The position numbers and the translations under genes are program-made. Positions 12,064 to 57,562 of a DNA stretch of 64,000 bases are shown in pieces; the first letter of the stretch is position 1, and each line of letters opens with the position of its first letter. Source of the DNA: Candidatus Undinarchaeota archaeon (GTDB lineage Archaea; Undinarchaeota; CAZWFW01). The stretch is from the NCBI GenBank assembly GCA_964633445.1, contig CAZWFW010000001.1, forward strand, positions 6,339-70,338, read 5' to 3'. The notes beneath the pieces were generated by a model. The model made no database searches, was not told the origin of the DNA, and was given only the letters and a program-made list of their open reading frames with translations.

Positions 12064-15000
12064 TTATTTTATAATAAGAGTTATTGCCTCGCTCTGTCCT
12101 CTTATATCACTATACATACCATAAGCTACCGCTGGCTTGGCATAAACGACGCTTGGATATTCAGCAACTAATTCATATTCTATGCTTGCCTCACCCAAAT
12201 GATTAATAAACCACGAGATTTTGTTACCATTAATTTCATACCTCACAATATTCTCACTTAAGTCATCCTTTAGCGAAGTTTCTTTAACCCTGAATCCAGG
12301 AGGTATGTAATCTTCAAGAATAACATAGTAGATATCGTTGCCCCTAATGCTTATTTTAACATTCACAACATCCCCAACCCTTGCAACTGTTTTGTTATAA
12401 CTCTTTTCAACGATTATATCTTTTTCAGGTAAAATCTGCAGCGTTTCGGTTGTTTGCTTAACAATTATGGTATAATAAGGATTGCCAATACCCTCTTTTC
12501 TTATTTCAATAACATTTCTTCCTGTTTCTAAATATTTAGTCACATCAATGATGTAAAGTTCGTCCTTATTTTCCTCAGTTACTGTAAAGCTTTGAACCTC
12601 TTTACCATTAACAAAAATGCTTAGTTTATAGTCCGCTTTTTGTTCCTTAGTAATCTTACTATACTCATATATTGCTAGCAGCGCCTCAGCAGTATCTTTT
12701 GTTGTATACCAACCGTAATATCTCTTGTTCTCAATTAACCACTTAATCGCCTCTTGAACAATTCCGTAATACTTAACATTCTCCGTTGCTAATAACGCCC
12801 TTATAGCACATGCAGTTGTTTCAACATCACCTGCAAGTGCTTTACCATGCCAATGGTTATTAACTGCCATGTCATAAAGCTTTTCGGCTAAATGGCTGGT
12901 ATCTCTTCCTGCTTTTTCATAGGCTAGGATTATTAGGGAGAGTGTGTAAGCATCCTCAACATTCTCATGATCTTCCAAATATTCAAGTGCTTTCTGAATA
13001 TGATAATCATCTTTGCTAACACCACTTTCAAGCAAAGCTAAAGTTACGTAAGCTGTCATAGCAACATCATTACCCCTTAACCAATGACTACCATGCCATG
13101 CACCATTGTATTCTTGTCTCTGCATCAAAACCCTCTGAGCCCCATCAATTATGCTCCCATCAACATAGAAACCTACCTGTTTGGCTTTAGCTAGGCCAAA
13201 TAATACGTAAGCCGTCATGAACTCATTAGTAGCATCATTTTCCCACCACCCCCATCCCCCATCGCTATGTCTAAAGCTATAAATTCTTTGTAAACCTTTA
13301 GCTATCATATCATCAAGCTTTTTCTCAAATTCCTCATCAAGCATACCTTTTTCTTTTAGAAGCATTTTGATTATGATATCAGGATATAAGCTACTCATCG
13401 TTTGTTCAACACATCCGTAAGGATACCTTGCAAGTCTTTCTACCCCTACAATTGAAATGCTTAGTAAAGTAGGTTGGATGAGGATCTTAGCATTGGTAAA
13501 TTCTGGAATAGCATTTTCGTATATCTCAAACTCCTTTTTAACATAATTGCTTTCAAGCACACCTGAAAATGATAAGGTTATTGGCTCTATCTTTGGCGTA
13601 ATCAAAATTTGCTTTCTTACGCCATCTGAATACTCGCCTGAATAAGCAACTACAGTGACATTTGCTGAGCCATAACTTGTTAACTTAACATACCAACTTA
13701 CCTCCTTCGCTTCATTTGGTCTTAATCTAACTACTTTTGTTTCATTATCCAGTATGACAAATTTCTTGGATTGAATTAAGGTAACATAAGCATCTATGCT
13801 TTCATCCAAAAAGTTAAACACCCTAGCGCTTATGGTTACCTCATCCCCAACCGTCGCTTCACTAGGCACATGAACCTTTATAAAGAAGTCTTTCTTGGCA
13901 ATAACCTCAGCATCATTATTACTTCCAACATCACAATTCTTAGAGGCTGCTAAGGCAAGAACTTGCCACGTTGTTATACTATCAGGCAATTTGAATTTTA
14001 CCTCTGCGGTACCATCTTTTGCTATAATTTCTTTCCATAAAGCTGTGTCTGGGAAGTAGTATCTTATCTCTATTCCCTTAGGAATATACCCAACACCCCT
14101 TGCCTCTTCTTCTAGCGTTTTAGGTGCCCCAATACCCGCAGCCCATTCCTCATATGTGAGATACTGTGGTGCGGCCCTCATAACCATTCCTCCCATAAGG
14201 AACATGCCTATAAGCAAGAAAACTACAACAAAAATTGCTGAGAGAATCGCTACACAAACAAGCACTGGTTTTCTCATATCTTTTCTTATAGCAGCTAAAA
14301 TGGCCAAAGCTATTATGAAAATTGGTAAAATCCAGAAGGCAGATGCTCCTGAAATTACTAAAAGAAGTAGAGAAAATGGAACAGCTAATCCAGCCAAGTA
14401 GTATCTTGTAGGTCTCCTTTTTACTTTGAGAATTACCAAAGCACCAAGCAAGGACGCAGTTGAGATGGTTGCCCACGCATCTTCATCTACATATCCGATT
14501 CCGAGAACATCAATAATTACTGCAAGAATAAATGCAGCCCCTAAGATTAAAGTTGGTAGTATAGCATACAAATATCTTGCTCTTCCAGTTTTAGCTAAAT
14601 ATACTGATGCAAGCGCTAGTGTTAGCAAAACTATAACTATAGCTAGAAGAATAAGTTTTTCAGCAATTTCGTTAACTTTCCACCTATCCACCTCAATTGC
14701 TGTTAGCGATACTCTGATGCTTTGAGCAGGGTTAGCATAATAGTGCTCAAATGGCGAGAATTTGTTTTCTTTCAGTATTTGAACAGATTTATCTATTACT
14801 GCAAAACTAACTAATGCTGAAATTGGCTTATTATCTTTAGAAACTTTAAATTTTATAGTTGCTTCTTCTCTTGGCTCATAAATTTTCTTATCGGATATTA
14901 TTTCAACATCTAGTTTCTTATCTGGCAAAACGTATATTGAAATTTCGTCATATGGGCAGGGAACACCATAACTTCCTTTAACAAGTTTTGGCGAAACATA

Positions 15001-16701
15001 TTCATAAGCATAAGTTCTATAGTAAGGATAACTGTATTTTCTGCAATCTTTTAAGACATATGCTCTTATAATAGCGTTCTGATATGAGGGCTTAGCTTTG
15101 ATAGTTAATTCAGCTTTTGCATCATTATCAAGCCTTACAGCATAGAAATCTGATGCATAAGATCCTAGAACACTCACATAAACGATTTCGTTTCTGTACT
15201 TCTCCTTTGCCAGTATGCCAAGCTTTATATCCTCGTTTTCTCTATATTCTTTCTTATCAGAGAAAACAACTATGTTTTTTTGCTCAATTTCATTAACTTG
15301 TGGTCTGCAATAAATACCCCTTCTGGAGTAATACCAGCAAGGTTTATAATTTAGGAAAATCTCTTTTTCTGCTGAATAAACACCATCATCTATGCTGAGT
15401 GTTATTTTAACATATTCAACTCCGCTTGGGTACCTGAACTTTATTAAAAACCCAGCACCCCTGCTTGCACCTTCGTCTAGTACCTCCTCCTGCAACTCGT
15501 TATCAACAATTTTATATCCTATAAGCTTCCATGTAGTTCTCGCATTACTTGCCTCTGTGCTATCAGGATATGCTATTGAAACGTAAACTTCAACATTGTC
15601 CCCCTCTCTATAAACTTCCTTGTTTTTCTGAATTTCTACATTAAATGCAGATGTTACGATGGGTATTTTCTTTATAGCTGAGGTTTCTATACCTAAAACT
15701 TCGCTTTTTGCTTCTATTACAAGGGACTTTGGATATCTCCAATAATGGTGGTAGTAATAGGGAATCTCAAAGGGAAATCTAACTATGCAAATTCCTTGGG
15801 AATTTGTTATACAGCTATCCTGTTGAATAATATTCCTTTCACGCCACCCAGATACTTCCAAATAAACCTTGTAATCGATTTTCTGGTTAACAACTGGATC
15901 TCCGAAAATATAAGTCAATTTGAATTTTACCTCAAACTCCTTATCATCCCTTGTAATCCAGTTTTTGCTCAGAATATCTAATTTAGCCTCTGGTTTTTCG
16001 TATTTTCTTATCTCGACAACCAATTTTTCAGTAGTATTCCCATATAATGCTGTAAATGAATAGTTTCCAATCTCAGCTTCTTTATCTATAGGGAAGCTAA
16101 GGGAAAAATGACTAAAATCGTCTGTCTCAACATTTTTCTTAAAGATAATTCTATTAGACGGATTTCTTACTATTAAAGCAACGGTTTTATGAGTAATTGG
16201 TGCGTATGTTCCATTGATTTGCTGCCAAACAAAACCAGCAACCTTTATTTCCTGGCCTGGCTTATAAATTTTTCTATCTGAATATAAATATATCTTAGCT
16301 TTTCTTTTCTCGATCTTTATCATTCTAGAGATCTCTCTGCTCTTACCGTGGTGCCATGCTTTAACTTTAAGCTCATAATTCCCTTCTGGTAAGTCTGGCA
16401 AAGTTATTCTTGCCATACCTGCTTTATTTGCTATTACGGTTTCCTCAAAATCGCCAATCCCAAAAGTTATTTTTGCATAAGGTAGTGGTTTGTAATCGGG
16501 GGATAATGCCATAGCAAAACCGTTAAGCTCTTCACCAGCATATTGCGTATCAGATATTTCTAAAAGCAGATTTATTTTCGTGTATTTGTTGTATAAATAG
16601 AAAAGCTTAGATAACCATAGCGGTGATGAGAAAAGCAGAATGCTTAAAGCTATAAGAGATATTATCGCAAACTTCAATTTTCTAAAAGAAACTTTTTTCA
16701 T
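12064..16701 (-). CDS. Alpha-2-macroglobulin-like thioester protein with internal multi-TM block
   Basis: N-terminal signal-anchor. Several MG-type repeats (SDRKIYKPGQEIKV, SDKKEYRENEDIKL, SDKKIYEPREEATI). Hydrophobic block at about nt 14177-14660. Then YFPDTALW...LPDSITTWQVLALAAS, the thioester motif YPYGCVEQT (CVEQ = 13402-13413) and DGGWGWW in a TED-like region. Confidence 0.85.
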   Translation of the reverse strand: MKKVSFRKLKFAIISLIALSILLFSSPLWLSKLFYLYNKYTKINLLLEISDTQYAGEELNGFAMALSPDYKPLPYAKITFGIGDFEETVIANKAGMARITLPDLPEGNYELKVKAWHHGKSREISRMIKIEKRKAKIYLYSDRKIYKPGQEIKVAGFVWQQINGTYAPITHKTVALIVRNPSNRIIFKKNVETDDFSHFSLSFPIDKEAEIGNYSFTALYGNTTEKLVVEIRKYEKPEAKLDILSKNWITRDDKEFEVKFKLTYIFGDPVVNQKIDYKVYLEVSGWRERNIIQQDSCITNSQGICIVRFPFEIPYYYHHYWRYPKSLVIEAKSEVLGIETSAIKKIPIVTSAFNVEIQKNKEVYREGDNVEVYVSIAYPDSTEASNARTTWKLIGYKIVDNELQEEVLDEGASRGAGFLIKFRYPSGVEYVKITLSIDDGVYSAEKEIFLNYKPCWYYSRRGIYCRPQVNEIEQKNIVVFSDKKEYRENEDIKLGILAKEKYRNEIVYVSVLGSYASDFYAVRLDNDAKAELTIKAKPSYQNAIIRAYVLKDCRKYSYPYYRTYAYEYVSPKLVKGSYGVPCPYDEISIYVLPDKKLDVEIISDKKIYEPREEATIKFKVSKDNKPISALVSFAVIDKSVQILKENKFSPFEHYYANPAQSIRVSLTAIEVDRWKVNEIAEKLILLAIVIVLLTLALASVYLAKTGRARYLYAILPTLILGAAFILAVIIDVLGIGYVDEDAWATISTASLLGALVILKVKRRPTRYYLAGLAVPFSLLLLVISGASAFWILPIFIIALAILAAIRKDMRKPVLVCVAILSAIFVVVFLLIGMFLMGGMVMRAAPQYLTYEEWAAGIGAPKTLEEEARGVGYIPKGIEIRYYFPDTALWKEIIAKDGTAEVKFKLPDSITTWQVLALAASKNCDVGSNNDAEVIAKKDFFIKVHVPSEATVGDEVTISARVFNFLDESIDAYVTLIQSKKFVILDNETKVVRLRPNEAKEVSWYVKLTSYGSANVTVVAYSGEYSDGVRKQILITPKIEPITLSFSGVLESNYVKKEFEIYENAIPEFTNAKILIQPTLLSISIVGVERLARYPYGCVEQTMSSLYPDIIIKMLLKEKGMLDEEFEKKLDDMIAKGLQRIYSFRHSDGGWGWWENDATNEFMTAYVLFGLAKAKQVGFYVDGSIIDGAQRVLMQRQEYNGAWHGSHWLRGNDVAMTAYVTLALLESGVSKDDYHIQKALEYLEDHENVEDAYTLSLIILAYEKAGRDTSHLAEKLYDMAVNNHWHGKALAGDVETTACAIRALLATENVKYYGIVQEAIKWLIENKRYYGWYTTKDTAEALLAIYEYSKITKEQKADYKLSIFVNGKEVQSFTVTEENKDELYIIDVTKYLETGRNVIEIRKEGIGNPYYTIIVKQTTETLQILPEKDIIVEKSYNKTVARVGDVVNVKISIRGNDIYYVILEDYIPPGFRVKETSLKDDLSENIVRYEINGNKISWFINHLGEASIEYELVAEYPSVVYAKPAVAYGMYSDIRGQSEAITLIIK

Positions 16702-16707
16702 GAAAAT

Positions 16708-18504
16708 TCACCACATAACCTTCTTAATGGCATTCCTTTTCCATACTATGATTATAATGAAAAGAATTAGCAAAAATGTCCAGAGAATCTTAGACTCAAG
16801 CTTCATGCCAACAACCTCAACATAAACTTCCTCATTCGGTTTCAAATTTCTAAATTTCCCTTCCAAATACTTATTCATTCTTGGAATCTCTATTTCTATT
16901 GGTACACCTCTCTTTGTTACAACAACCTCCTCAACTTGCTTCTCAACACCTATCTCCCTTAAAACTTGAGCTTGCTGAGCAAAAAATCCTTTACCACCCA
17001 GCGTTATTTGTCTATATGGTCTTGTGGGAATAAATTCAACAATCTTCAACTCCATTTCAGGTTTCGAGCTCATTTTCAATTTTTTGAAATCTGTTGGCAG
17101 ACCTAGCTTAATCGCCCCTTCAAGAATTGGTGCTGAAATCTTGGGCAAATACGCTAAGTAAGTTAATAGAACATTTCCTTTTTGAACATTATCTTGTGTG
17201 TAGATTACTATTAATTCGAAATCTCTATAGTCATTACCAACTTTTTCTGAAAGAGGCAGAGGAATTTTTATTTTTTCTTGCTCCTTATAGGCGAAAGCAT
17301 TTTCACCGTCTATCAAAGCTCCCCAGAACGTTGCATTATCTGGCAAAGTCAACTCCAATGTTTTACCAGGCTCCGTATTTACAATGCGATACGTTGCTTT
17401 AACAAGTGCAAAATCCTTTGTAGGTAATATATCGTACGTTGCTTGCTTAATAATAGTAGCTAAAACACCTACTTCCTCAACTTTTTCTTTGGATATAAGC
17501 AGAGAAAATTTTTGGCCTTCATACGTTGCCACCAAAACGTAATCTGCAGCATATTTTCTTCCAAAATCCAGCAAATCCTGCCTTTCATACGGGGATATCT
17601 CCCTTACATTAGTTGCAGATGTAACGTTAATCTCAAATCCCTTTGCATATACTGCCAATGCACAAGCATACGCATCTGTAGCTCCTTTTTCTAAAAATAT
17701 CGTTGGCTGTGTAATATTGAGAGTTAGAACTTCAAATTTAAGCGTTAATAGAAGACTGTTTGTAGATCTAGGCAAGACTGCTGAGAGAGTATTATTTTCA
17801 ATCTCAGCAAAATCTAAAAGATGATAGTCGCTTCCAGCATAAGTGGCTATCGCATCCTCCAATCTATAGTTTGATGGGAAACTTAATTTTATGTAATTAA
17901 AGCTACCCGCGGATGTTGGGTGATATATAAATATTGCTTTGTCCTTATCTGCTAGGGTTATTATAGCATATGCCCTCTCTATTTCCTGCGGTAAAGTTAT
18001 CTCCTGCCATTCAGATTTAACATTTAGAGAATTTGCATTTGTAACCAGCCAAACAATCTTGTTTTCAACCCATTCATAGGGTTCAGGAGTGGGGTGAACC
18101 TTTAATTTTCTATAAAATTCATTATCGAACTCATATTCCATCTCCAAAATTTTTGCGGGGCTTGGCAAAGAAATTGAAGATTCCGCCTTATTCTTACAAA
18201 TCTTAATCCCATCAGCTAAGATTATATGTTTACCAGAAGTTAAATTAATTTTAAGCAAGTTGTAAGCATATTGCTCCTCAGAAACTGGGTTATTATCTAC
18301 ATAAACATCTTCAACAGCAAAATCCCCTAATGGCAGAGTGATTGTTGTATTCCTGAATGCTGAAATTTCTATTCTTAGCGAGACATCGCACTTATTCTCA
18401 GAAATCTTGTAAGCAAGTTCGTATTTATTTATGGTGTAATCCTGAGCATGTGCGTAATTCAAGCTTGTCAAGACCAGTAAAAGTAATATAAACAGACCCC
18501 TCAT
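16708..18504 (-). CDS. Exported protein with C-terminal TM anchor, unknown function
   Basis: 598 aa with signal peptide MRGLFILLLLVLTSLNYAHA|Q and C-terminal TM ILWTFLLILFIIIIVW followed by KRNAIKK. 6-nt gap to the A2M-like gene and ATGA overlap with the upstream gene. Confidence 0.7.
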   Translation of the reverse strand: MRGLFILLLLVLTSLNYAHAQDYTINKYELAYKISENKCDVSLRIEISAFRNTTITLPLGDFAVEDVYVDNNPVSEEQYAYNLLKINLTSGKHIILADGIKICKNKAESSISLPSPAKILEMEYEFDNEFYRKLKVHPTPEPYEWVENKIVWLVTNANSLNVKSEWQEITLPQEIERAYAIITLADKDKAIFIYHPTSAGSFNYIKLSFPSNYRLEDAIATYAGSDYHLLDFAEIENNTLSAVLPRSTNSLLLTLKFEVLTLNITQPTIFLEKGATDAYACALAVYAKGFEINVTSATNVREISPYERQDLLDFGRKYAADYVLVATYEGQKFSLLISKEKVEEVGVLATIIKQATYDILPTKDFALVKATYRIVNTEPGKTLELTLPDNATFWGALIDGENAFAYKEQEKIKIPLPLSEKVGNDYRDFELIVIYTQDNVQKGNVLLTYLAYLPKISAPILEGAIKLGLPTDFKKLKMSSKPEMELKIVEFIPTRPYRQITLGGKGFFAQQAQVLREIGVEKQVEEVVVTKRGVPIEIEIPRMNKYLEGKFRNLKPNEEVYVEVVGMKLESKILWTFLLILFIIIIVWKRNAIKKVMW

Positions 18505-19130
18505 CTTACAACGCTTGCTTTTTCTACAAATCCATAGCTTGCCTCAGCTAGGATTCCCGCTCTTACTTTTGGGGTCGGATGGAAAAGTAGATCCACAAAT
18601 TGAACTAGTGTAAAGATAAGAATACATAAAGTTACTATAATTAAAATAACTGTCTCCCAATCTTTTCTCTTTTCATGCTTAAAATATAAGTAAAGATATC
18701 TTATACTTGCAGCACCTCCTAACCATATTGAGATTATATGTAACACTACTGGCGAATGATCTGTTAAACTATAAAGAATGTTTAACGGTAGGATGGCAAG
18801 CATGACTAAAGTTGCTACCAAAAAAGTTACAAGGTTTCTTGAAAATGCATTAATAACAGTGTCTCTTGAGCCAAAAATCCATGTAAGCATATAAAGAGGA
18901 ATTGTTGCAAAAAGAATTGTTAAAATTTCTGTTACAGGAAATTTCCACGCAAATGCTAAAGATGTTTGGAAAATTTTATCTAATAAGTATCCGTAGATTG
19001 CCCCATAGATTGAGGAAAATATAATAAGCGCCAAGGAAAAATATAAGACGGTTATTTTTTCCTTGTTTAGCATATCAAAACTCTTCTCAGGCTTTTTTAG
19101 GAGAGATATTACTGCTGTTATAGCACCCAT
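18501..19130 (-). CDS. Polytopic membrane protein (about 5 TM; Yip1-like impression, unverified)
   Basis: 209 aa with a short soluble N-terminus followed by 5 hydrophobic helices. First gene of the three-gene unit ending in the A2M-like gene. Confidence 0.6.
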   Translation of the reverse strand: MGAITAVISLLKKPEKSFDMLNKEKITVLYFSLALIIFSSIYGAIYGYLLDKIFQTSLAFAWKFPVTEILTILFATIPLYMLTWIFGSRDTVINAFSRNLVTFLVATLVMLAILPLNILYSLTDHSPVVLHIISIWLGGAASIRYLYLYFKHEKRKDWETVILIIVTLCILIFTLVQFVDLLFHPTPKVRAGILAEASYGFVEKASVVR

Positions 19131-19295
19131 ACCAAATAGTATAGGTTACTGCTAAACTTTATAAAATTAACTTTTGCGTTGTATCTTGGTTTCTGTAGCT
19201 ATTGTTTGGTGATTTTGTTCATGATAAAATGCGGAAATTGCGATCATATAGTAACTTTCAAAGCAAAAAGGGTGTAAAATTGAGATAGGGGAGTA

Positions 19296-20252
19296 TCAAC
19301 CAAGACTTGCTAGAAACTTTATTCTCTTAAGAGTATTCGGATGTGTGCTAAGCAACTCCATAATTCTTTCGGCAAATCCTACTCTTATTTTCTTACTCCT
19401 TAAAGCTGCAAGCTCGTCTTCTTCAATTTTTCCACTCATATCCATATCGATTTGCTTTAATTCAGTAATTTCGTTGTAAGCCCTTGAAACATCATTTAAA
19501 AAGAATGCCTTTAATCCCTCAACTCTCCTCAATTCGCTTTCATCACTTCTTGCGGAACCATAAACTATCTTGTAAAGCGCTGAAGCTAGAGCGCTTGGCT
19601 TATTACCAAGCTTAACACTCCCTAAATCAGCATAGTACTCTCTTATTCTTGAAGCATATAGAACGACAAGATTTGTTATTAGGTAAAATATAAATGCTGC
19701 TAACCCAATTATTATTGCTTGCGCTGGTCTTTCCTCAAATGCTGCAACATAAATACTGTTTCTTGCGATCATCCAGCAAATTAGTGGTATTGCGCTTAAC
19801 ATCGTAATTATTATGACATCCCTATTTTTCAAGTGCGAAATTTCGTGCCCTAAAACAGCTTTTAATTCCTCTCTATCAAGCAACTCTACTATTCCTCTTG
19901 TTACACAAACTCTACCATCTCCAACTCCTCTGCCAAATGCAAATGCGTTTGGTATGCTTAAGTTGCATATACCAACTTTAGGTTTTCTAATTTTTGCTTT
20001 TCTCGCGAGCTCTTCAACAATTTCATGCAACTCTGGGTATTCCTCTTTGCTAATATATCTTACACCCATGCTAAGCTCCACAATCTTAGGACCGATAAGA
20101 TATTGGATAAAGAGAAGAAAACATGCGAAAGATACTGCAAACGCAATGCTATAAAATCCAAAAATAACACTTACTATAGATGCTATAGCATAGAATAAAG
20201 CAAATGCTAGCATCAAAACAAAAAACATCTTTATTCTTAGGATAAATGTCAT
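19296..20252 (-). CDS. htpX: HtpX-like M48 zinc metalloprotease
   Basis: HEISHLKNRD (HExxH) sits between TM helices. N-terminal 2 TM plus a further TM pair, and C-terminal STHPNTLKRI, as in HtpX homologues. Confidence 0.9.
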   Translation of the reverse strand: MTFILRIKMFFVLMLAFALFYAIASIVSVIFGFYSIAFAVSFACFLLFIQYLIGPKIVELSMGVRYISKEEYPELHEIVEELARKAKIRKPKVGICNLSIPNAFAFGRGVGDGRVCVTRGIVELLDREELKAVLGHEISHLKNRDVIIITMLSAIPLICWMIARNSIYVAAFEERPAQAIIIGLAAFIFYLITNLVVLYASRIREYYADLGSVKLGNKPSALASALYKIVYGSARSDESELRRVEGLKAFFLNDVSRAYNEITELKQIDMDMSGKIEEDELAALRSKKIRVGFAERIMELLSTHPNTLKRIKFLASLG

Positions 20253-20490: not shown

Positions 20491-20506
20491 AAAGTTTAAA
20501 TATTTT
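20491..20506 (+). promoter_or_regulatory. Putative TATA/BRE promoter of rgy
   Basis: aaagTTTAAATAtttt lies about 25-33 nt upstream of ATG 20529, implying a very short or absent leader. Confidence 0.4.
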
Positions 20507-20528
20507 GAGGGGATTCCAACATACAGGT

Positions 20529-23500
20529 ATGAAAGCCATTTTCAAAGACTTTTGCCCAAACTGTAATGGGGAAATAGATGATGAGAGACTTTGGCATAAA
20601 GTTCCTTGCGAAAAGTGTTTACCCTTATCTTTGGACAAAGTTAAAAAACTAAGCGAAAATCTCAGCAATTTAGAATTTAAAGAGCTAATTTACGAGTTAC
20701 TAAATGAAAGAGGAACTCTAAAGAATTATTCAAAAATATATGAGCTGGAGAGAAGGGTTGAGGAAGTTAACAAGATTTTTGAGGCATGTATAGGCAGCGG
20801 TCTTTGGTCTGCCCAGAAAGTTTGGGTAAAGAGAATTTTAAACAAAGTAAGTTTTGCTTTGATAAGTCCTACAGGAATGGGAAAAACAACGTTTGGTATG
20901 GTAATGTCCCTTTATTTGGCAAAGCATGGTAAGAAATGTTACATAATTTTGCCAACGACGATCCTTGTTAAACAAATAAACGATAGACTTGAAGAGTTTA
21001 TGGAAAAAAGCGGGGTTAGAGTTAGAGTTTTAGCATATCATACCGAATTAAAAAAAGGCGAGAAAGAGGAGGTAAAGGAGAAGATAACTAAAGGAGAATT
21101 CGATATATTAGTAACATCAAGTCAATTCCTAGCAAGAAACTTTGAGATAATAAAAAAGCAGAGATTCTATTTCATATTTGTGGATGATGTTGACGCTTTT
21201 CTTAAAGCATCCAAAAACATTGACAGGGTTTTGTTTCTCATGGGATTTTCTGAAGATGCCATCAAAGCCGCTATGGAGATTATTAAAATTAAAAAACAGT
21301 TAGTTGTCAGGAGGGATAAAAATCTCGAAGATAAGCTAAAAACTCTTGAAAGAAGTTTGGAGGAGTTTAAGGATGTCGAAAGCATTCTTGTGGTTTCCTC
21401 AGCAACTGGTAAGGTTAAGGGCGATAAGGTAAAAGTTTTTAGAGAATTACTCAACTTTGAAGTTGGCACTGCAAGGGAAGGGGCTAGAAATATAGAGCAT
21501 ATTTGGCTTGAAGGCAAGCTAGAGGATATCTGTGAAATAATTAGGAAAATGGGTGGTGGTTGCTTAATATTTGTTCCTATAGATGCTGGTACAGAGCTTG
21601 CCAAGGAAATTGAGCAGTTTTTAATTTCGAAAGGAATTAACGCTAAAGCTGTTCATGCAAAAACTAAAAAGAGTGTTATTGATCGCTTTGCTAAAGGGGA
21701 AATTGATGCGTTGATAGGAGTAGCGAGTTATTATGGTGTTATTGTGAGAGGATTGGATATTCCCGAGAGGGTTAGGTATGCAATATTTTATGGAATTCCG
21801 AAATTCAAATTCTCCTTAGAGATAAAGGAGAGGAATCCGATTAGGGTTCTGTCCCTGCTATCTACCTTAAGGGAATTTTCAAGTAACAAAGAAAGAGTTG
21901 ATAGAATGATTATAAAATTAAGAAGGATACTGTCAAAGCTGTCACCAGAGGATTTGAGGAAAGTTGAGGAAAGCCAACAGTTAAATGATTTTTTGGTGTA
22001 TGTTAAGCAAGAATTTGAAAAAGCTGCTGAATTTTTGCAGAATATGCTCAAAAATAAGGAGGTTCTAGATAAAATAGGAAAAAGCCCGTATATTTCTCTA
22101 GTTAAAGAAAGTGAAGGATTATTCATAAAAATACCTGATGTAAGAACATACATACAGGCTACAGGTAGAACTTCAAGAATGTATGCTGGTGGTATTACCA
22201 AAGGAGCTTCCTTTGTCTTTATAGATGATGAAAAGGTGTTTAATGGTTTGAAAAGGCAGCTGATATTACTTGATGAGGAGTTCAAAAGTATTGGTGAAGT
22301 TGATCTTAAGAAGATTAAGGAGGAGATAGAAAGGGATAGGAAATTGCTTACTGAAATCAGGGAGGGTAAAGTTAAAGTTGAGGCAAAAGAACCCGTTAAA
22401 TCTTGTTTGTTTATTGTTGAATCCCCAAACAAAGCAAAAACAATTGCAAATTTCTTTGGTAGACCATCTAAGCGTAGAATTGGTGAATTGGTTGCTTATG
22501 AAACACATACTGGAGATTTCGCTTTAACAATAATTGCAACTGGTGGACATATTTTAGATTTAGCTCATGATGGTATATATGGGGTTAAGAGGGTTAATGG
22601 TAAATTTATTCCGATCTACACGACAATTAAAAAATGTAGGAAATGTAATGAGCAATTTGTTGAGGGTGATGTATGCCCGAATAAGAAATGCAATTCAAAG
22701 GACATATTTGATAGCAGGTATACAATTGAAGCATTAAGGCATCTTGCAGATGAAATAGGATATGTTATAGTCGGTACAGATGCTGATTCGGAAGGTGAGA
22801 AAATTGCTTGGGATGTAGCAACATTAATCGCACCTTTTGCAAAAGAAATAAAGAGAGCTGAGTTTCACGAGGTTACTAGGAGAGCTATTTTGAACGCTTT
22901 GGAAAATCCAAGAGAAATTGACGAATTTAGGGTTAACGCTCAAATTGTAAGGCGTATTGAGGATAGGTGGATTGGCTTCTACTTAAGCCAAGATTTATGG
23001 AGAATATTTGAAAAGGGTTGGCTTTCGGCTGGTAGGGTGCAAACGCCAGTACTTGGCTGGGTAATTGAGTTTGAGAAGCTTGCAAGAAAGAAGAAGTCAG
23101 TAGTTAGGATAGTACTTGAGAATGATGCTGTTGTGGATTTTGAGTTTAAAAACATTAGACAGGCTAAGAAATTTGCTGAAGATGTTGAGGAAGCGTATGT
23201 GGAAATACTTGAGGAGAAAGAGGAGAAAATAAAGCCGAATCCCCCATATACAACTGATACTTTACTAAGGGACGCTTCTCGCTTCTTCAGACTTGATGCT
23301 CCAAAGGTTATGCAAATTGCGCAGGATCTTTTCGAGGCTGGGTTATGCTTGACACCAGACACCTACGTAATTATGCATGATGGAAGTATTAAGAAGATAG
23401 GCGATATCTCCGAAAATGAAAATGTTTTGGGCTTGAACAATCTACATGAGATGCCTGCAAAGGTACTAAGGTTTTGGAAGATACCGTATAAAGGTGTGAT

Positions 23501-25598
23501 CAAAGAAATAGTGCTTGAGAATAATTATAGCATAAAGGCTACTCCAGATCACGGAATTTTTGTTTACAGAGATGGTAAATTTGGTTGGGTTTCAGCTAAG
23601 AATGTAAGGGTTGGAGATTATGTGGCAGTAGCTTTCAATGTCAACATTAAAAGAGAAAGCTTAGGTTTACTCGAATTATTGGCGAAGCTTGGAATATTGG
23701 ATATATGCGTCGAATTCAAGAAAGATTCAAAACTATTTGAAAAGCTTAAAAAGAGAGTTGATGGAAGTAAGGCAAGTGCAAAATATAAGTATATGGGAAG
23801 CAGGGCAATTCCTTTAAAGTATTTAGATAAATGGGGCATTGATCTAAAAGCCGTTGAAAGGGAAGCAACCACCATTTCCAAGCAGAGATCCTCAGCTGAA
23901 AAAATTCCAATTTTTAAATTAAATAGCGATTTTTGGTACTTCGTTGGACTGGTTATGGGTGGTGGAACAATCGAAGAAGAGAAAATTGTAATATCTCAAA
24001 AAGATGCTAAGGAAATCAAAAGGATACTTGAAAATGTGTTTCCATTTGCCAATGTGAGGATTGCTGGCACGCAAGTTTACCTTGCTAATTCGATTATAGC
24101 AGAGATTTTAAGAAAACTGGATGTAAGGGGCAAGTTAAATGGTTTAGTGTTTTCACTGCCAGAGGATTGCATAAATGCTATGATAGCTGGATATATTGAT
24201 GCTGATGATAGCATTTCGTTGAAGTTTGACAAGAAATGTTGTAAAAACAATCTTAGAATTGTTATAAGTAATAAAGAAAGGGAAAAAATTGAGAAAATTG
24301 GATATTACCTATGCTTGATTGGTATTTTGAACACATTGCATAAGGATGAAAAAACAGGTATTTGGAAACTAATTTTAGGCAATAAATCGCTTAAGACGTT
24401 TAAAAAGAAGATTGGTAAACATCTTAGAACTAGGAGAAAGATTTTTGAGAAAGCATACAAAGCATGCGCAAGTGAGCATCTAGAGTCAGATTTTGTTCCG
24501 TTTAGTAAATTTTTCAAGTTACTTAAATTTGGGAAAGGTGTTGAGGGTAGAATTCTCAAAGAACTTTGCACTGATGCTCGAAATTTGGATGACTGTGCAT
24601 GTATACAAAGAGAAAAGCTTAAGAAGGTAGTTAAATTGGCTGAAGACACTGATGTTAAGACATTTTTGCTTGAACTGTTAAATGCCAATGTTTCATGGGT
24701 TAGAGTGAAGGAGGTTAGGAATAGGCAATATAACGGATATGTTTACGATATAACAACTGCAACATCAAACTTCTTTGCTAATGCGATACTTAACCACAAC
24801 TGCACCTATCACCGTACAGATTCAACAAGAGTATCAAAGGAAGGTTTGAACGTTGCTAGGGAATTGGTTGAGGAAAGTTTTGGCAAGGAATATTTCAAAG
24901 CAAGAATTTGGTATATGGAAGGTGCCCATGAGTGCATAAGGCCCACAAAACCACTTACGAGAGAGTATCTCGAGGAGTTGATTAATACTGGCGCGCTAAC
25001 ATTGCCTAGACAATTAACCTTTTGGCATCTTGTAGTTTATGAGCTCATTGTGAATAGATTTATGGCAAGTCAGATGAGAGAGGCTAGAGTTGTTAAACAG
25101 AAAGTAAAAGTAAGTGTTAAAGATGTTGAAAAAGAAGTTGAAGGATACGCTAAGGTAGCTGATGAAAGTTTCCTAAAGATAACTAAGGTACCAATGATAC
25201 CCGAGTTTAGGAATGGTAGGGTAAAAGTTAAAGATGTAAAGGTAATGAGGGTACCATCATCCAAGTTGCTTACGCAAGCGGATCTCGTTGCTTTAATGAA
25301 GGAGAGGGGTATAGGTAGGCCATCAACCTATGCTACAATAATTGCTAAATTGTTCAAAAGGGGTTACCTTTACGAGCTTGGTAAGGAGAAGAGGATTAAT
25401 AAAATTGTGGCAAGGAAAATTGGCAAGGAAGTTTTTCAGTATTTGATTAGCAATTATCCTCATTTAATTAGCGAGGAGCGTACAAGGAAACTTGAGGAGG
25501 ATATGGATATGATAGAGGAGGGTAAGAAAGATTATCAGGAAGTTCTAAATGAAATTTACAAGGAAATCTTTGAGCCAGAAATACTCAAGCAATATTAA
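20529..25598 (+). CDS. rgy: Reverse gyrase (helicase-topoisomerase IA fusion), interrupted by an intein
   Basis: N-terminal Zn finger CPNCNG...CEKC, helicase Walker A SPTGMGKTT and FVDDVDA. Toprim/topo IA region with active-site CTYHRTDS restored after intein removal. The track start 20505 is TTG and the first ATG is 20529. The extein is 1204 aa from ATG 20529 (1212 from the track TTG start). Confidence 0.97.
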   Translation: MKAIFKDFCPNCNGEIDDERLWHKVPCEKCLPLSLDKVKKLSENLSNLEFKELIYELLNERGTLKNYSKIYELERRVEEVNKIFEACIGSGLWSAQKVWVKRILNKVSFALISPTGMGKTTFGMVMSLYLAKHGKKCYIILPTTILVKQINDRLEEFMEKSGVRVRVLAYHTELKKGEKEEVKEKITKGEFDILVTSSQFLARNFEIIKKQRFYFIFVDDVDAFLKASKNIDRVLFLMGFSEDAIKAAMEIIKIKKQLVVRRDKNLEDKLKTLERSLEEFKDVESILVVSSATGKVKGDKVKVFRELLNFEVGTAREGARNIEHIWLEGKLEDICEIIRKMGGGCLIFVPIDAGTELAKEIEQFLISKGINAKAVHAKTKKSVIDRFAKGEIDALIGVASYYGVIVRGLDIPERVRYAIFYGIPKFKFSLEIKERNPIRVLSLLSTLREFSSNKERVDRMIIKLRRILSKLSPEDLRKVEESQQLNDFLVYVKQEFEKAAEFLQNMLKNKEVLDKIGKSPYISLVKESEGLFIKIPDVRTYIQATGRTSRMYAGGITKGASFVFIDDEKVFNGLKRQLILLDEEFKSIGEVDLKKIKEEIERDRKLLTEIREGKVKVEAKEPVKSCLFIVESPNKAKTIANFFGRPSKRRIGELVAYETHTGDFALTIIATGGHILDLAHDGIYGVKRVNGKFIPIYTTIKKCRKCNEQFVEGDVCPNKKCNSKDIFDSRYTIEALRHLADEIGYVIVGTDADSEGEKIAWDVATLIAPFAKEIKRAEFHEVTRRAILNALENPREIDEFRVNAQIVRRIEDRWIGFYLSQDLWRIFEKGWLSAGRVQTPVLGWVIEFEKLARKKKSVVRIVLENDAVVDFEFKNIRQAKKFAEDVEEAYVEILEEKEEKIKPNPPYTTDTLLRDASRFFRLDAPKVMQIAQDLFEAGLCLTPDTYVIMHDGSIKKIGDISENENVLGLNNLHEMPAKVLRFWKIPYKGVIKEIVLENNYSIKATPDHGIFVYRDGKFGWVSAKNVRVGDYVAVAFNVNIKRESLGLLELLAKLGILDICVEFKKDSKLFEKLKKRVDGSKASAKYKYMGSRAIPLKYLDKWGIDLKAVEREATTISKQRSSAEKIPIFKLNSDFWYFVGLVMGGGTIEEEKIVISQKDAKEIKRILENVFPFANVRIAGTQVYLANSIIAEILRKLDVRGKLNGLVFSLPEDCINAMIAGYIDADDSISLKFDKKCCKNNLRIVISNKEREKIEKIGYYLCLIGILNTLHKDEKTGIWKLILGNKSLKTFKKKIGKHLRTRRKIFEKAYKACASEHLESDFVPFSKFFKLLKFGKGVEGRILKELCTDARNLDDCACIQREKLKKVVKLAEDTDVKTFLLELLNANVSWVRVKEVRNRQYNGYVYDITTATSNFFANAILNHNCTYHRTDSTRVSKEGLNVARELVEESFGKEYFKARIWYMEGAHECIRPTKPLTREYLEELINTGALTLPRQLTFWHLVVYELIVNRFMASQMREARVVKQKVKVSVKDVEKEVEGYAKVADESFLKITKVPMIPEFRNGRVKVKDVKVMRVPSSKLLTQADLVALMKERGIGRPSTYATIIAKLFKRGYLYELGKEKRINKIVARKIGKEVFQYLISNYPHLISEERTRKLEEDMDMIEEGKKDYQEVLNEIYKEIFEPEILKQY
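23346..24800 (+). mobile_element. Intein (485 aa) with LAGLIDADG homing-endonuclease domain in the rgy topoisomerase active site
   Basis: Starts ...EAGL|CLTPDTYV and ends ...AILNHN|CTYHRTDS. Block B TPDH is present. LAGLIDADG-like motifs are FVGLVMGGGT and MIAGYIDADD. Boundaries were placed by codon counting from 20505. Confidence 0.9.
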
Positions 25599-52690: not shown

Positions 52691-55600
52691 CTAAAATAAT
52701 CTAAGTGCCCTGCACCTTGAGAAATAGGCGAGTGCCAGAATAACAGCTAAAATAATTGCATAAGTGTTTATACCACTTGCAATCTTAATCGTTACGGGAA
52801 TCCAAGGAGTCACTTGAACGTCCTCCACTATATCAACACTTATTGATTTTTCAGGATAATCACATATATCGCCATAAGGGCCTTTTTCACAAACTTTAAT
52901 TCCAATAGTGTCAGTACCAGCCTGTGCACCCAATAGAGTAATAGTAACTTTAATTTCGCTAAAACCTTTTACATTCTGTATGCAGAACTCAGAAATACCA
53001 CACTTAAAGATGCCTGATCCTGTATCAGGATCAGCTCCTGAAACATCCTCTATTTTAACATTACCTTTGTTTATGTCTATGGTTATCGTAATATTTCTTT
53101 CCTCCTTTAATCTTTTACCTATTTTTAGCAGAATTTCTCTATCTTGACCCAAAGGGATTTCTACTTTAGTCTGGGAAATAGCAGCAGATATGCAAGCGCC
53201 ACATCCACTATTTATTCCGCAATCTACATCCTCCTCATTGCAAATGTTATCATCCTTAATATTATTCTCGCAATGATTATCGTACCAAGTTCCATTTAAG
53301 CAAACCCCTCCTTCATATATATGGCACCAGTTATCTGTTGGCTTGTCGCAGCATTTGTTAAAGTTAATATCCGTGTTATATGGAGAGTCATCATCCCAGT
53401 GATGTCCAAAGGCTTCGCAGATTGCCGAGTCCAGCTCTTTCTCATATTCGCTTCCCCAATATATCTTTCCAGCTGACGAATTATATCTCGATCCAGTTAG
53501 GTTAACGCATGCATATTTGGTGCCATTATATACAGTAACAATTTCATTCAAATCTTTTTCTTTAACAAAATTACTCTCATCAGAGCTCACGTCAAAGTAA
53601 CACTTGTATACATAAGATTGAGTACCTTCGTCAGAATCTGAACCATAACCAGATGTTATCGTATCGTTACCTGGGCAGAGGTAGCAGTTGTAGCAAAGAG
53701 ATGGCGTATCTGTTGCATTTACTCTCCAAATCTCGTTTAGTTTACATGATTTGTAAACAGTTATGGAATGCTTACTTTCCTCCTCACCAAAAGTACCATC
53801 CGTGCTTAATATGCTTAACCTTGTTTTAAGTTCAGATTGATTAACAATACCATCACCATTTTCGTCTGCTGTAAATGGTAGGTCTTCAACTTCACCAACA
53901 CCACAGTGAGCTACCTCATAAAACCCTCCTCTACTTCTTTTTATGCATTTATCGAAATTATAAAGGCATTCTGCTAAAGTTAGTGGTTCCAGATCTTGAA
54001 AGCTTGCATATGCCCACGCTTGACTGCAGTTATAAGAAATTTGCTCGGTTATGTTAAGTGATACTGTGAGGTCATCCAACCATGATAAAGCAAGATCCAA
54101 CTTTATGTCTGCAATCTGGTTAATCTTAATAGTTAGATCTCCAACAAGATCGTTTTCCCAGCCTATTGTGAGATTTAATGTGATGTTGGCCAAATCCTTA
54201 TTTACAGGAGAAACTTCTATAGAGTTAACACTCTCGGATGCTACACTTGGCACATATCCCTCGCAAAGGGAATATTTTTTCTCAATTTCATCTTTTAACT
54301 TGCTTTTAATTTGGGAATCAGTTACAACGCCTTTATTTTTAATATCATTGTAAACAGTGTTGTAGTTTGTGTAGTCCTCAGCATAATTCTCAAATTCAGT
54401 GGAATTCATACCGAATATTTCAGTAGTATTTATATCTGAAAGATTCATCATTATATTAAAGGTTTCAGTTGGTAGTGGTGAAGGAAGACTTGCAGAAACG
54501 CTTTCTATACCTCCATCTACGCCGCATTTACTCTTTATTAATGCTTCAAAAGATTTCCAATTTGAATTTATATCATTAGCTAGCTCAGTAGCATTGCAAT
54601 AACCCCAGTCAGTTGCTATGAACCCACAAATTTTTGTTACTTCGTAATACGTGTCTGGTGTAACAGCTATGTTAGCTGGTGGTTTTTCAACATAGAATAT
54701 TGGGTTATACGAGGGGCAAACACTTGGACTTATATAACCAAGGGAGGTTAGTTTGTTAATCAGTTTTTGCTTTAGAACAGTTTTATCTATATAACCAGAA
54801 GAATTTAGTTCATCAAAAGTCTCATTATAATTTACAGGATTTTCGGCATAAGTCTTGAACTCGGAGGCACTTAAGCCAAATAGTTTTGTTACGTTAACAT
54901 CATCTAAAGTTAATAGAACATTAAAAGATGTATATCCTGCAGGAACATTTGCTTGGACATCCTTAATATTTTCCTCCTTAACACCACACTCGGTAGCAAT
55001 GGCACTTTTAAAACTCTGCCAATTACCATTTATATCATTAGCTAAACTATAAGCATCACAATAACCACTCCAACTGCTACTTGTTGCTATAGAAACGCAT
55101 GAGGAGTATTGAGTTACAGTTAATTCACATTCTGTAATATTTGGAGGCACTTCATGCTGTCCTAGGACAAATGATTCGGAAAAATAAATATCTCCAACTC
55201 TTTTTGGACCCTCTGTCTCGGTAGGAACATAAATACCTTTGGCTGTAAGATTTACCCAACCAGGAATTCCCCCACTTCTACCAATCTCAACAGTCTTGTT
55301 AATAGCTTCTATGAGCGCTCTTCTCCATGCCCAACTTTTATACCCTTTACCTATCAATTTTAGCGTATAATTTTTCCTAAAAACTTGCTGTTCAGGAATT
55401 GTAAAATTTTCCAGAATTCCGGTATTACCTGCAGTAAGATTTAAGCTTTGATGAGCAACAAATATACCATATTCAGTGCTTAAAACATTACTGCCATCTA
55501 AAAGGCTTGCATTAACTCCTAACATTGGAATTCTGTCTACACAAGCTTCTATAAATGCTGAGAAAGTGACAGTGACATTCTCACCGGAACGCCATATATT

Positions 55601-57562
55601 GTTTGCATCTCTTATCCCAGGGTTGCTTAATCCAAGAGATAAACTATCAATTGATGTTAAATTTAAACCAATACGTGACAATTCTTTTTCTAAAACATTT
55701 TCTCGAAGCTCTCCAATAACTCTACACATTGGACAAATCCATCCTCCCGAAATTGTAAGTGTGGAACTGGACCCAGAAGTAAGTGAGCAACCCCCACTGA
55801 AAGGATTGCAACCTTCAGAAGGGATGGTATAGGATACTATGCATGGCTGCGTTACGGTTGTGCTACCTGCCTCATTTTTATATTCCCATTTACATTGGGG
55901 AGGATCACACCATGTTCCATATTGTACACATCTCCTACAACTTTCAGCAGCCTTTATTTCAGTTTTCTCAACTGGATGGGGGCAAAAACTTAAGGAAGCT
56001 GCACCAAAACTACAACTTGCATTTTTATATAAGCTTAATGGCTGGTATAGCGTTGTTGTTTCTCCTCCACTACAACATGGCCAAGGATTACTTGGAGAAT
56101 AAAGACATCTCGCACATTCCGAGGTACAACATCCTGCGTATGCAAATTTCGTATTAAGAAACAAAGTGAATAAGAGTAGAACGATTGGAAGGTATTCCTT
56201 CCTTCTAAAGAACTTGAAGAATAACATCGTTGCTAATATAATGGTTAGAGCTACTAAAATATATACTTTGTTCGACTTCTTAACTTCAACTTTTTCCCCA
56301 AAACCTGGAGTTTCCTCACCAGTTTCTTTTGCAGGCATGAAGCTTATGCAATCCATACAATTAAGTTTTTTCTCAAAATCATCGCAAATTCCATCATCAA
56401 AGCATTGATTGGCATTCAAATATTTGACTCTCCCATCCTCAGCAAGTATTATCTCAGGTTCTAAATCATAATACTCTATTTGCTCTTCATCAAAAACACG
56501 ACCATCTTTTCCTAATTTTACAACAACCTTATATTTCAACAAATCTTCTTTGGCTCTAAATTTGAACGTAAAACTTTCTGGTTTAAAAGTAAGGTCTATT
56601 GTCTTATTCTCACTAAACACCTCCTCATTATTCCTATAGATTTCAAGCAAAAGATATGCATTGCTGACAATTGATTTATCTGCAGGCCCTACAACCGTAA
56701 CGTTAATTTCAACTTCATCACCTTTTTTATAGACGTCCTTCTTATTTTCAATACTTAGTATTGTGCCACCTTCACCCATGATAACAGCTCTGCATTCGCT
56801 CGTAGCTAATAAATTGTTCTGCAAATCGTAAATCTCTATAACAACTCTATAAGTTCCTGGGATTGTTATGCTAATAGGAATCTCAATAACTTTTCTAGCA
56901 TTACCTTCTAGCTCTCCAATATCAACCTCCTTCTCAAAGATAACATTGCCAGAGTAAGTACCAATCGCTTTTACTAATCCCTTTACTTTTATGCTAAAAG
57001 GATTTTTATTTATTAAGGGAGCGATTAGACGAATTTCGGCTGATGGTGGTATTTCTCTCCCCCAATCTGAATAGGAATACCATACAATTCTCCTGACAAT
57101 TGTGTCTGAGCGTTGAATTTGAATAACTTTTAAATAAACAGTTTTCTCAAATGAAACCTTTGGTAAGGTTGCAATGTCGCTTAAGTTCACATCACTTGAT
57201 AACCATGTAAGAGGCTTTCCAAACTCGTATACTTTGCAATATACCTTATAATTATCTCTTGGAAGTTTCTCTGGTAGTGTTAAGCTAAAACTTAAATCTT
57301 TTACCTCTCTTGAATCTAGAAGCACTGTCTCAGTATTTCTTGCGAAGATGCTGGAATCAGATCCTGCAAGAATGACCTCAACGTTAAATTTCTTTACGAC
57401 GTATTCCGTATTAGCAACTCTTACAGAAACATCTAAAGCATTACCTACATTCTCAGCTTCACATTGAAGCAAAGTAACACAATTTGCCACATTTAATATA
57501 ACAAGCTGTGCTAGGCAAATAATAAAAAAAACCTTAAAATTTTTCAATCCTCGCCTAACCAT
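52691..57562 (-). CDS. Giant (1623 aa) Cys-rich surface protein with N-terminal signal, mid-protein TM pair and C-terminal anchor
   Basis: Signal-like N-terminus, CARDB-like repeats (aa about 30-400) and a [12 protein letters not shown] junction (nt about 56130-56290). The rest is a very Cys-rich remainder with a ~155-aa tandem duplication. C-terminal [16 protein letters not shown]. Confidence 0.75.

Follow-up and report, generated by a model that had tools for sequence, protein, structure and literature searches.

An Archaeal Alpha-2-Macroglobulin-Family Thioester Protein with Six Predicted Transmembrane Helices beside Its Probable Bait Region

Introduction

Alpha-2-macroglobulin (A2M), complement and the thioester-containing proteins (TEPs) are textbook examples of soluble or lipid-tethered traps and opsonins. 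In this study, we describe a 1545-residue protein of the A2M/TEP family that is encoded on the minus strand of a 64,000-nucleotide stretch of DNA from a Candidatus Undinarchaeota archaeon (positions 6,339 to 70,338 of contig CAZWFW010000001.1, assembly GCA_964633445.1), hereafter called the window. The protein carries an intact thioester motif and, beside a probable bait region, six predicted transmembrane (TM) helices. What appears to be new is that the bait loop itself would be threaded through the membrane, a different engineering solution, with the cleavage site placed beside the lipid bilayer.

The type-I proteins ECAM/YfhM and SaA2M resemble the window protein in being prokaryotic and monomer-sized, in their composition of macroglobulin-type (MG) domains, a bait region, CUB, a thioester domain (TED) with a CxEQ motif and a C-terminal MG domain, and in being held at the cytoplasmic membrane facing outward; the folds match, and a snap-trap mechanism is presumed for all of them. 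However, ECAM and SaA2M belong to diderm bacteria, where a lipid at the N-terminus anchors them as periplasmic lipoproteins, and their bait region is soluble (ECAM is named “lipoprotein YfhM” as a PDB molecule, and the characterised bacterial A2Ms are lipoproteins; PMC4498604), whereas the window protein combines a TM signal anchor with six TM helices within the bait loop. The gene neighbours also differ and do not include pbpC, as none of the neighbouring open reading frames (ORFs) scanned with Pfam matched a penicillin-binding protein. Furthermore, the window protein does not match the bacterial-type domain set (bMG1-10 and NIE; PF11974, PF17972, PF17973), in which only bMG10 came close, at residues 1434–1531, with 25.9 bits, just under the cutoff of 26.2.

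The best sequence and fold matches are the eukaryotic proteins A2ML1, CD109 and TEP1, which likewise have six MG domains before the bait and depend on the thioester for covalent capture by a monomer; CD109 is, in addition, membrane-tethered. CD109 has its tether, a glycosylphosphatidylinositol (GPI) anchor, at the C-terminus; A2ML1 and TEP1 are soluble proteins. Unlike the window protein, none of the three has TM helices inside the bait loop. MagD of P. aeruginosa, a type-II A2M, reportedly lacks the thioester and is said to be held at the membrane by partner proteins and not by TM helices of its own. MagD and the Mag complex are comparable to the present case as an inner-membrane A2M homolog with operon-encoded partners (PMC5764988, PMC3735191), although the partners encoded in the window are ORFans unrelated to those of Mag.

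For archaea, Makarova et al. 2021 (PMC8416519) reported A2M homologs with CxEQ, signal peptides and a variable domain organisation. As far as the main text of that paper goes, these homologs resemble the window protein in being surface proteins that combine Ig/MG-like domains with a TED and CxEQ and in being encoded near surface and membrane genes. The examples come mainly from Halobacteria and Methanomicrobia, and the main text makes no mention of TM helices at the bait position (PMC8416519). A paper on Vampirococcus mentions in passing two “large membrane proteins” with A2M domains (PMC8080830). Full-text literature searches yielded no description of an A2M whose bait region contains TM helices and none of A2M-type anti-sigma factors, in agreement with the statement, made when the window protein was originally predicted, that no described A2M of this architecture was known to the reader.

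Results

Assignment to the A2M/C3/TEP Superfamily

The gene is a single ORF of 1545 codons without interruption (Table 1). The original prediction, which was made by reading the sequence without database searches, had described an N-terminal signal anchor followed by MG modules, and both were recovered, the anchor in the hydropathy profile and the MG modules by Pfam and in the structural models. The translation also contained all of the motifs that it quoted, namely SDRKIYKPGQEIKV at residues 141–154, YFPDTALW...LPDSITTWQVLALAAS at residues 882–919, YPYGCVEQT with CVEQ at residues 1097–1100, and DGGWGWW at residues 1147–1153. The Pfam analysis upheld the assignment to the thioester proteins of the A2M/TEP family, with significant matches to MG2 (E 2.1e-17, residues 136–222), A2M and TED_complement. 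A weak match to A2M_BRD was also observed at residues 584–642, corresponding to the tail of that domain, and none of the NCBIfam A2M models matched the protein. The FPDTALW motif (residues 883–889) straddles the start of the A2M domain. The thioester motif is intact (GCVEQ, residues 1096–1100), and its C, E and Q were invariant in an alignment of 65 relatives of the TM type, that is, with helices at the same position; a thioester is predicted from this sequence.

We analyzed two AlphaFold2 (AF2) models, one of residues 347–1545 (predicted local distance difference test score, pLDDT, 74.5) and one of residues 1–1085 (pLDDT 78.7; predicted template-modelling score, pTM, 0.68). The domain order in the models was six MG domains, a helical block, MG7, CUB, TED and MG8. 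A Foldseek search with the model of residues 347–1545 matched A2ML1, C5, CD109, frog A2M, TEP1, ECAM and SaA2M with E values of 1e-53 to 1e-42 (the matches included 5a42 and 4u48), the values for A2ML1, C5, CD109 and TEP1 reaching down to 3.5e-53, and the TM-scores of this model were higher against native states (~0.42–0.50) than against activated or cleaved states (~0.21–0.31). By sequence, the proteins in the PDB ranked in the order A2ML1 (7e-40), human A2M (4e-38), CD109 (7e-37), TEP1 (6e-33) and ECAM (6e-17), the nearest solved relatives being eukaryotic. Membership of the window protein in the A2M/C3/TEP superfamily was thus supported by its domains, fold and thioester motif.

Six Helices Predicted between the BRD and MG7 Domains

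Kyte-Doolittle analysis resolved six hydrophobic segments within residues 681–842 (peaks of 1.66–3.4), a block that sits between the Pfam A2M_BRD and A2M (MG7) domains, as it does in the relatives P0026 and P0067. Helices were placed by the AF2 model of residues 1–1085 at approximately residues 673–705, 711–732, 740–758, 765–783, 791–804 and 807–835, and the model of residues 347–1545 also showed six, at nearly identical positions. The number of helices that had been parsed by eye from a supposedly uninterrupted hydrophobic stretch was thus retained, while the stretch itself proved to be broken by short charged loops.

The predicted cytoplasmic loops contain 10 lysine or arginine (K/R) residues in 17, and the predicted outer loops contain 0 in 11 (Table 1). 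This distribution obeys the positive-inside rule, suggesting that both flanks of the TM block are located outside the cell. At the N-terminus (MKKVSFRKLKFAIISLIALSILLFSSPLWLSK), there is no Cys and hence no lipobox, and a K/R-rich tail precedes the signal-anchor helix (TM0). In relatives, the helix equivalent to TM0 comes after a cytoplasmic anti-sigma domain, indicating that it serves there as an anchor and not as a cleaved signal. The topology predicted from hydropathy, loop charges and AF2 secondary structure therefore has the N-terminus inside and both halves of the protein outside. An even number of helices is expected for this arrangement, because the bait loop starts and ends in one and the same domain, MG6, which places both of its ends on one side of the membrane.

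The GC content is slightly raised in nt 14000–14499, which covers the downstream two-thirds of the TM block. Short ORFs on both strands within 14150–14725 probably reflect the composition of TM-coding DNA.

A Disordered and Hypervariable Linker as the Probable Bait

The YFPDTALW segment had been thought to follow directly after the TM block. In fact, TM6 is separated from RYYFPDTALW by a hydrophilic linker of ~40 residues (843–881), for which AF2 gave a pLDDT of only 35–43. This linker is the least conserved segment between the window protein and its ortholog in GCA_054010715.1 (locus L003), which is 85% identical and has the same length, block and neighbours. Over residues 843–885, the protein identity was 55% and the nonsynonymous divergence (dN) 0.35, and the nucleotide identity was 62% at nt 14204–14055, as compared with 92–98% upstream of it and 96% immediately after it. 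A hypervariable bait is a known hallmark of the A2M family. In an alignment with the human A2M precursor, EIRYYFPDTALW (residue 878 onward) matched residue 730, TVRKYFPETWIW, and the human bait, which spans residues 690–728 in the UniProt annotation, ends just before the aligned point. As it is disordered, least conserved and placed like the human A2M bait, linker 843–881 was read as the candidate bait region, a probable assignment from sequence comparison.

The TM helices are accordingly read as an insertion at the N-terminal edge of the bait. The proposal that the membrane block replaces the bait was not supported, since the disordered, hypervariable linker remains where human A2M has its bait, and the block probably leaves the bait function to it. 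In the AF2 models, the six helices are followed by the disordered linker ahead of MG7. In the 91 TM-type representatives described below, the last helix and FPxT were 35–155 aa apart, with a median of 62 aa.

Assemblies and Divergence from the Ortholog

Independent assemblies from ENA, Logan, NCBI and JGI all encode the identical protein. The whole-gene ratio of dN to synonymous divergence (dS) against the L003 ortholog was 0.15, indicating purifying selection, and the TM block was 88% identical to that of the ortholog at the protein level. A tract of ~1.35 kb from nt 15550 to 14200 (residues ~385–835) showed 92–98% nucleotide identity to the ortholog, as compared with ~75–88% in the rest of the locus, and dS was 0.14 in the TM block versus 0.46–0.88 elsewhere. 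This tract looks like a recent recombination tract; its downstream end falls exactly at the hypervariable linker. An overlapping element was considered as the cause of the low dS in the TM block and was rejected, as the high-identity tract extends well past the block.

Occurrence of the Architecture among Relatives

A HMMER search of 1.84 billion representative proteins with residues 1–1000 as the query gave 8565 hits at E ≤ 1e-3. Helices were counted with a crude helix caller in the best 149 of the 8565 representatives, 91 of which had TM helices between the end of the BRD and the A2M domain; because the query contained the TM block and thus enriched for TM-bearing matches, this proportion is not a family-wide frequency. 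Two helices were the most common arrangement (n = 50), followed by six (n = 23), four (n = 6) and eight (n = 1), with odd or higher numbers in the remaining 11, so that 80 of the 91 had an even count (2, 4, 6 or 8). Together with the loop charges, these counts support the earlier proposal that an even helix number keeps both halves of the protein outside, whereas the implication that the architecture was a one-off is contradicted by its recurrence. The architecture is that of a large family in archaea and bacteria, apparently undescribed.

In 18 six-helix clusters, the TM blocks aligned poorly and had no conserved polar residues, while the flanks VDExVFAL...PGxE and RxxFPETLxW were conserved. 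The position of the insert is recurrent, but the sequence of the block and the number of its helices are not conserved. Two possible origins of the block were considered and rejected, namely triplication of one hairpin, and homology to either the two-helix hairpin of the L005 protein or the block of P0123, as the alignment scores did not exceed those of shuffled sequences in either case; likewise, the similarity between the blocks of P0001 and P0123 was within that of composition. The variation of block sequences and helix numbers points to a role like that of an anchor, in which the constraint is simply one of hydrophobicity, and from these comparisons we favour the TM block acting as an anchor and not as an enzyme or channel.

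The closest relative in the genome collection (L005:2-3406; 47% identity) is encoded in a Candidatus Nanoarchaeia metagenome-assembled genome (MAG) from the DRTY-6 sample and is cut off by the end of its contig. At the site of the six TM helices of the window protein, it has only two, indicating that the helix number shifts quickly within the clade. A scan of the genome collection with the patterns YSDRKIYK and YP[YH]GC[VA]EQ gave 80 mostly conventional bacterial A2Ms, among which only L005 had a TM insert, and a word-index search with a profile of 65 TM-type A2Ms added no new TM-type members to the list from a single sequence. A rough neighbour-joining tree of the C-terminal halves placed the window protein with P0002, P0124 and P0123 in a clade of four, all of the TM type. 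In this tree, the TM types were restricted to one large branch, made up of 79 leaves of the TM type and 58 others, and at least 10 changes of state were counted. The protein with eight helices, P0026 (L004:8001-12995), has an intact CFEQ and a Firmicute-like context with Spo0A, YabP, YqfD, sortase and AgrB; a gene that follows it encodes a YfhO-family membrane protein.

Anti-Sigma Domains in Bacterial Relatives

In a scan that covered seven N-termini, the zf-HC2 anti-sigma domain was detected above the Pfam cutoff in the TM-type A2Ms P0145, P0126 and P0228, and P0126 is preceded by the gene of an extracytoplasmic function (ECF) sigma factor, with which its start shares 4 nt. These three proteins share the domain with the known zf-HC2 anti-sigma/ECF sigma pairs, whereas the window protein is without it. 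At L087:5423-11136 and L088:4131-9844, an A2M of 1711 aa combines an N-terminal zf-HC2 domain with six TM helices at the bait position, and a 193-aa ECF sigma gene (Sigma70_r2/r4_2) overlaps its start by 4 nt. By virtue of this domain and the overlapping sigma gene, the 1711-aa A2M would itself be the anti-sigma factor.

More broadly, a cytoplasmic N-terminal domain was present in 47 of 91 TM-type but only 1 of 58 non-TM representatives, and HxxxCxxC in 24 and 0 of them, respectively. Many two-helix and six-helix forms start with a cytoplasmic domain. The association is suggestive of a coupling between the A2M ectodomain and the release of a sigma factor in those bacteria, by way of the bait-adjacent hairpin and the N-terminal helix. 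The window A2M has a tail of 11 aa only, without the HxxxCxxC zinc finger, and its neighbours encode a Yip1-like protein and a 598-aa ORFan instead of an ECF sigma factor.

Two Upstream Genes Kept with the A2M Gene

The two genes preceding the A2M gene on the same strand are listed in Table 1. The 598-aa protein had no Pfam match at the family cutoff, no PDB match and no PADLOC match, and the word index contained no homologs of it beyond orthologs. The 209-aa protein showed a weak match to Pfam Yip1 (E 4.5e-4, under the cutoff). The element TTAATTTTATAAAG is located ~30 nt ahead of the ATG at which the 209-aa gene starts and is a candidate for the promoter of the three-gene unit, judging from the sequence.

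The next closest TM-type A2M, P0123 (locus L085), has six helices and is ~30% identical to the window protein. Its contig is archaeal, also encoding GINS, L44e, S27e and aIF2-alpha, and P0123 is preceded by a 211-aa and then a 610-aa gene, in the same order as in the window. The 211-aa product showed 32% identity to the 209-aa protein (E 1e-27) and the 610-aa product 27% identity to the 598-aa protein (E 5e-43), the latter being the only distant homolog of the 598-aa protein, found via synteny. Because both upstream genes are kept beside a distant archaeal A2M, we regard the three genes as a conserved module, whose products, on the strength of this gene order, probably form a membrane complex. 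A gene for an M48 (HtpX-like) membrane metallopeptidase (19296-20252, minus strand) lies 165 nt upstream of the module; it is kept in L003 and absent upstream of P0123 in L085.

That the window is archaeal and comes from a hyperthermophile is indicated by its genes for reverse gyrase, TIP49 and aIF5B and by FEN1 in the orthologous locus. The window organism also encodes HypF.

Table 1. Features of the A2M gene, its product and the upstream genes (window positions; aa, residues of the product)
Feature	Residues (aa)	Position (nt)	Strand	Basis or sequence
Complete coding sequence of the 1545-aa membrane-embedded A2M/TEP-family protein, with stop codon	1-1545	12064..16701	(-)	ORF list, translation, Pfam
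N-terminal tail, predicted inside				MKKVSFRKLKF, 5 K/R
N-terminal signal anchor TM0	12-31	16609..16668	(-)	Kyte-Doolittle hydropathy; AF2 helix 6-41
Extracellular N-terminal half, six MG-type beta-sandwich domains	44-643	14773..16572	(-)	AF2 pLDDT mostly 80-97; Pfam
Six-helix TM block	681-842	14176..14661	(-)	Hydropathy, AF2, loop charges
Loop 1-2, predicted inside				GRARY, 2 K/R
Loop 2-3, predicted outside				LGIGYVD, 0 K/R
Loop 3-4, predicted inside				KVKRRP, 4 K/R
Loop 4-5, predicted outside				SGAS, 0 K/R
Loop 5-6, predicted inside				RKDMRK, 4 K/R
Hydrophilic, disordered, hypervariable linker, probable bait	843-881	14059..14175	(-)	pLDDT, ortholog divergence, human A2M alignment
A2M domain (MG7 region) with LPDSITTW motif	886-975	13777..14046	(-)	Pfam PF00207, E 7.6e-23; AF2 pLDDT ~96
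Thioester domain, TED	1083-1347	12661..13455	(-)	Pfam PF07678 TED_complement, E 1.4e-38; AF2 high confidence
Thioester motif CVEQ within YPYGCVEQT	1097-1100	13402..13413	(-)	Translation
C-terminal CUB remainder and MG8/bMG10-like domain	1348-1545	12067..12660	(-)	AF2 beta-sandwiches; weak Pfam bMG10
598-aa protein: signal peptide, large ectodomain, C-terminal TM anchor		16708..18504	(-)	ORF; 6 nt from A2M start
209-aa polytopic membrane protein, first gene of putative operon		18501..19130	(-)	ORF; overlaps 598-aa gene by 4 nt
A/T-rich TATA-box-like element TTAATTTTATAAAG, candidate archaeal promoter of the three-gene unit		19155..19172	(-)	Read from sequence

Discussion

We consider that the window protein acts as a doubly anchored, surface-exposed thioester protease trap with a membrane-adjacent bait and two conserved membrane partners, a reading to which we assign a probability of about 0.6. 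It would be a cell-surface trap of the A2M/TEP family residing in the cytoplasmic membrane of a hyperthermophilic archaeon. From the N-terminus, the K/R tail would lie inside, followed by the signal-anchor helix, six MG domains outside, and three hairpins (six TM helices) running into the membrane and back; the flexible linker of ~40 residues, MG7, CUB, the TED with CVEQ, the second part of CUB and MG8 would then all be outside. The hairpins would provide a second membrane anchor, inserted into the MG6-interrupting bait loop at its N-terminal edge; as both ends of that loop leave one domain, only even helix numbers would be tolerated. Linker 843–881 would be the real bait, cut by a protease that reaches the membrane surface. 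Its cleavage would set off a rearrangement of the A2M type, and the exposed thioester would bind the protease covalently, leaving it tethered at the cell surface. The organism presumably has no outer membrane, and without an outer membrane or a closed periplasm, a soluble or lipoprotein A2M would not be retained in the Gram-negative way. The Yip1-like protein of 209 aa and the type-I protein of 598 aa would be co-transcribed and are probably complexed with the A2M.

Several points weigh against this reading. Protease trapping by the window protein is a prediction from homology, and the N-terminal anchor would by itself retain the protein, so that the second anchor needs a further reason. The pLDDT in the TM block was low (35–60), leaving the helix packing uncertain. 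By crude free energies on an insertion scale, TM3 (+6.7 kcal/mol) and TM4 (+3.7 kcal/mol) are only marginally hydrophobic, although on the same scale both are still more hydrophobic than every 19-mer of the soluble domains. The contrast seen at the linker may in part reflect mosaicism and recombination and not diversifying selection. Finally, the anti-sigma coupling in many relatives suggests that the TM segments can do more than anchor.

The last point leads to the possibility that the protein is a transmembrane protease sensor, in which cleavage of the bait or the conformational change is communicated through the membrane by the TM helices and the N-terminal helix; the signal would pass to the co-encoded Yip1-like protein in the archaeon, while in bacteria the fused anti-sigma domain would free the ECF sigma factor. 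For this speak the zf-HC2 domains of P0145, P0126 and P0228, the sigma gene overlapping P0126, the enrichment of cytoplasmic N-domains and HxxxCxxC in TM-type over non-TM representatives, and, in the archaeal operon, the conservation of a polytopic partner gene. We nevertheless regard it as unlikely for the window protein, which exposes to the cytoplasm only its 11-residue tail and loops of 5-6 residues and has no anti-sigma domain, in an archaeon, a group without sigma factors; moreover, the TM sequences are not conserved, and no regulator is encoded within the three-gene unit. Equally doubtful is the broader proposition that TM-inserted A2Ms are a widespread, so far undescribed class of prokaryotic transmembrane protease sensors in which the thioester protein is both trap and receptor. 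If true, such sensors would be a prokaryotic counterpart of innate immune protease sensing.

A role as a covalent adhesin or opsonin in the manner of TEP and C3, attaching the cell to a host or partner cell, an S-layer, a mineral or a polymer without trapping proteases, seems less probable still. The sequence is closer to A2ML1, CD109 and TEP1 than to ECAM, and further surface proteins, with MG2 or CARDB domains, are encoded in the window. A Nanoarchaeia MAG is the source of the closest relative in the genome collection, and many Nanoarchaeia live attached to host cells; however, the window organism has HypF and other genes of a free-living metabolism. Protease-activated members of the family are marked by a hypervariable linker of the bait type, which speaks against an adhesin, yet this argument is tempered by the fact that C3 and TEP also need proteolytic activation. 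It is very improbable that an N-terminal MG protein, a small membrane protein and a C-terminal TED protein were artificially fused through mis-assembly or a restored frameshift, or that the block does not span the membrane. Nothing pointing to an artefact was found in the locus beyond two oddities, the low dS of 0.14 in the block and the slightly raised GC in nt 14000–14499, and the former is part of a 1.35-kb tract reaching far past the block. The ORF is uninterrupted in all four data sources, and the same architecture was observed in the 85% ortholog, in the 47% and 30% relatives and in 91 representative clusters; the fusion of separate genes that had been raised as a concern with the original prediction is thus excluded by the independent assemblies and the ortholog of the same layout.

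The doubly anchored trap that we favour suggests a way in which a thioester trap might be put to use on the surface of cells that lack an outer membrane. The architecture appears common, extending over archaea, a Firmicute-like lineage and bacteria that pair the A2M with an ECF sigma factor, and the anti-sigma fusions offer a testable model for the transmembrane sensing of extracellular proteases. Where the complement/A2M family originated is debated, and it is relevant to this question that the archaeal protein is nearer by sequence to A2ML1, CD109 and TEP of eukaryotes than to ECAM.

Other Features of the Window

The reverse gyrase gene (20505-25598, plus strand) contains an intein (Intein_splicing and LAGLIDADG_3) inside its topoisomerase part, and the intein is kept in L003. 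An ORF of 1623 aa (52691-57562, minus strand) had no significant Pfam match, with only a sub-threshold hit to DUF7490. A second protein with an MG2 domain, of 825 aa (MG2 and DUF2341), is encoded at 58801-61278 on the plus strand and is overlapped by a 344-aa ORF (61275-62309, plus strand) with a weak match to Big_5; these two ORFs may constitute a further surface-protein module. The 487-aa ORF at 1083-2546 on the minus strand contains a CARDB domain, indicating a cell-surface protein.

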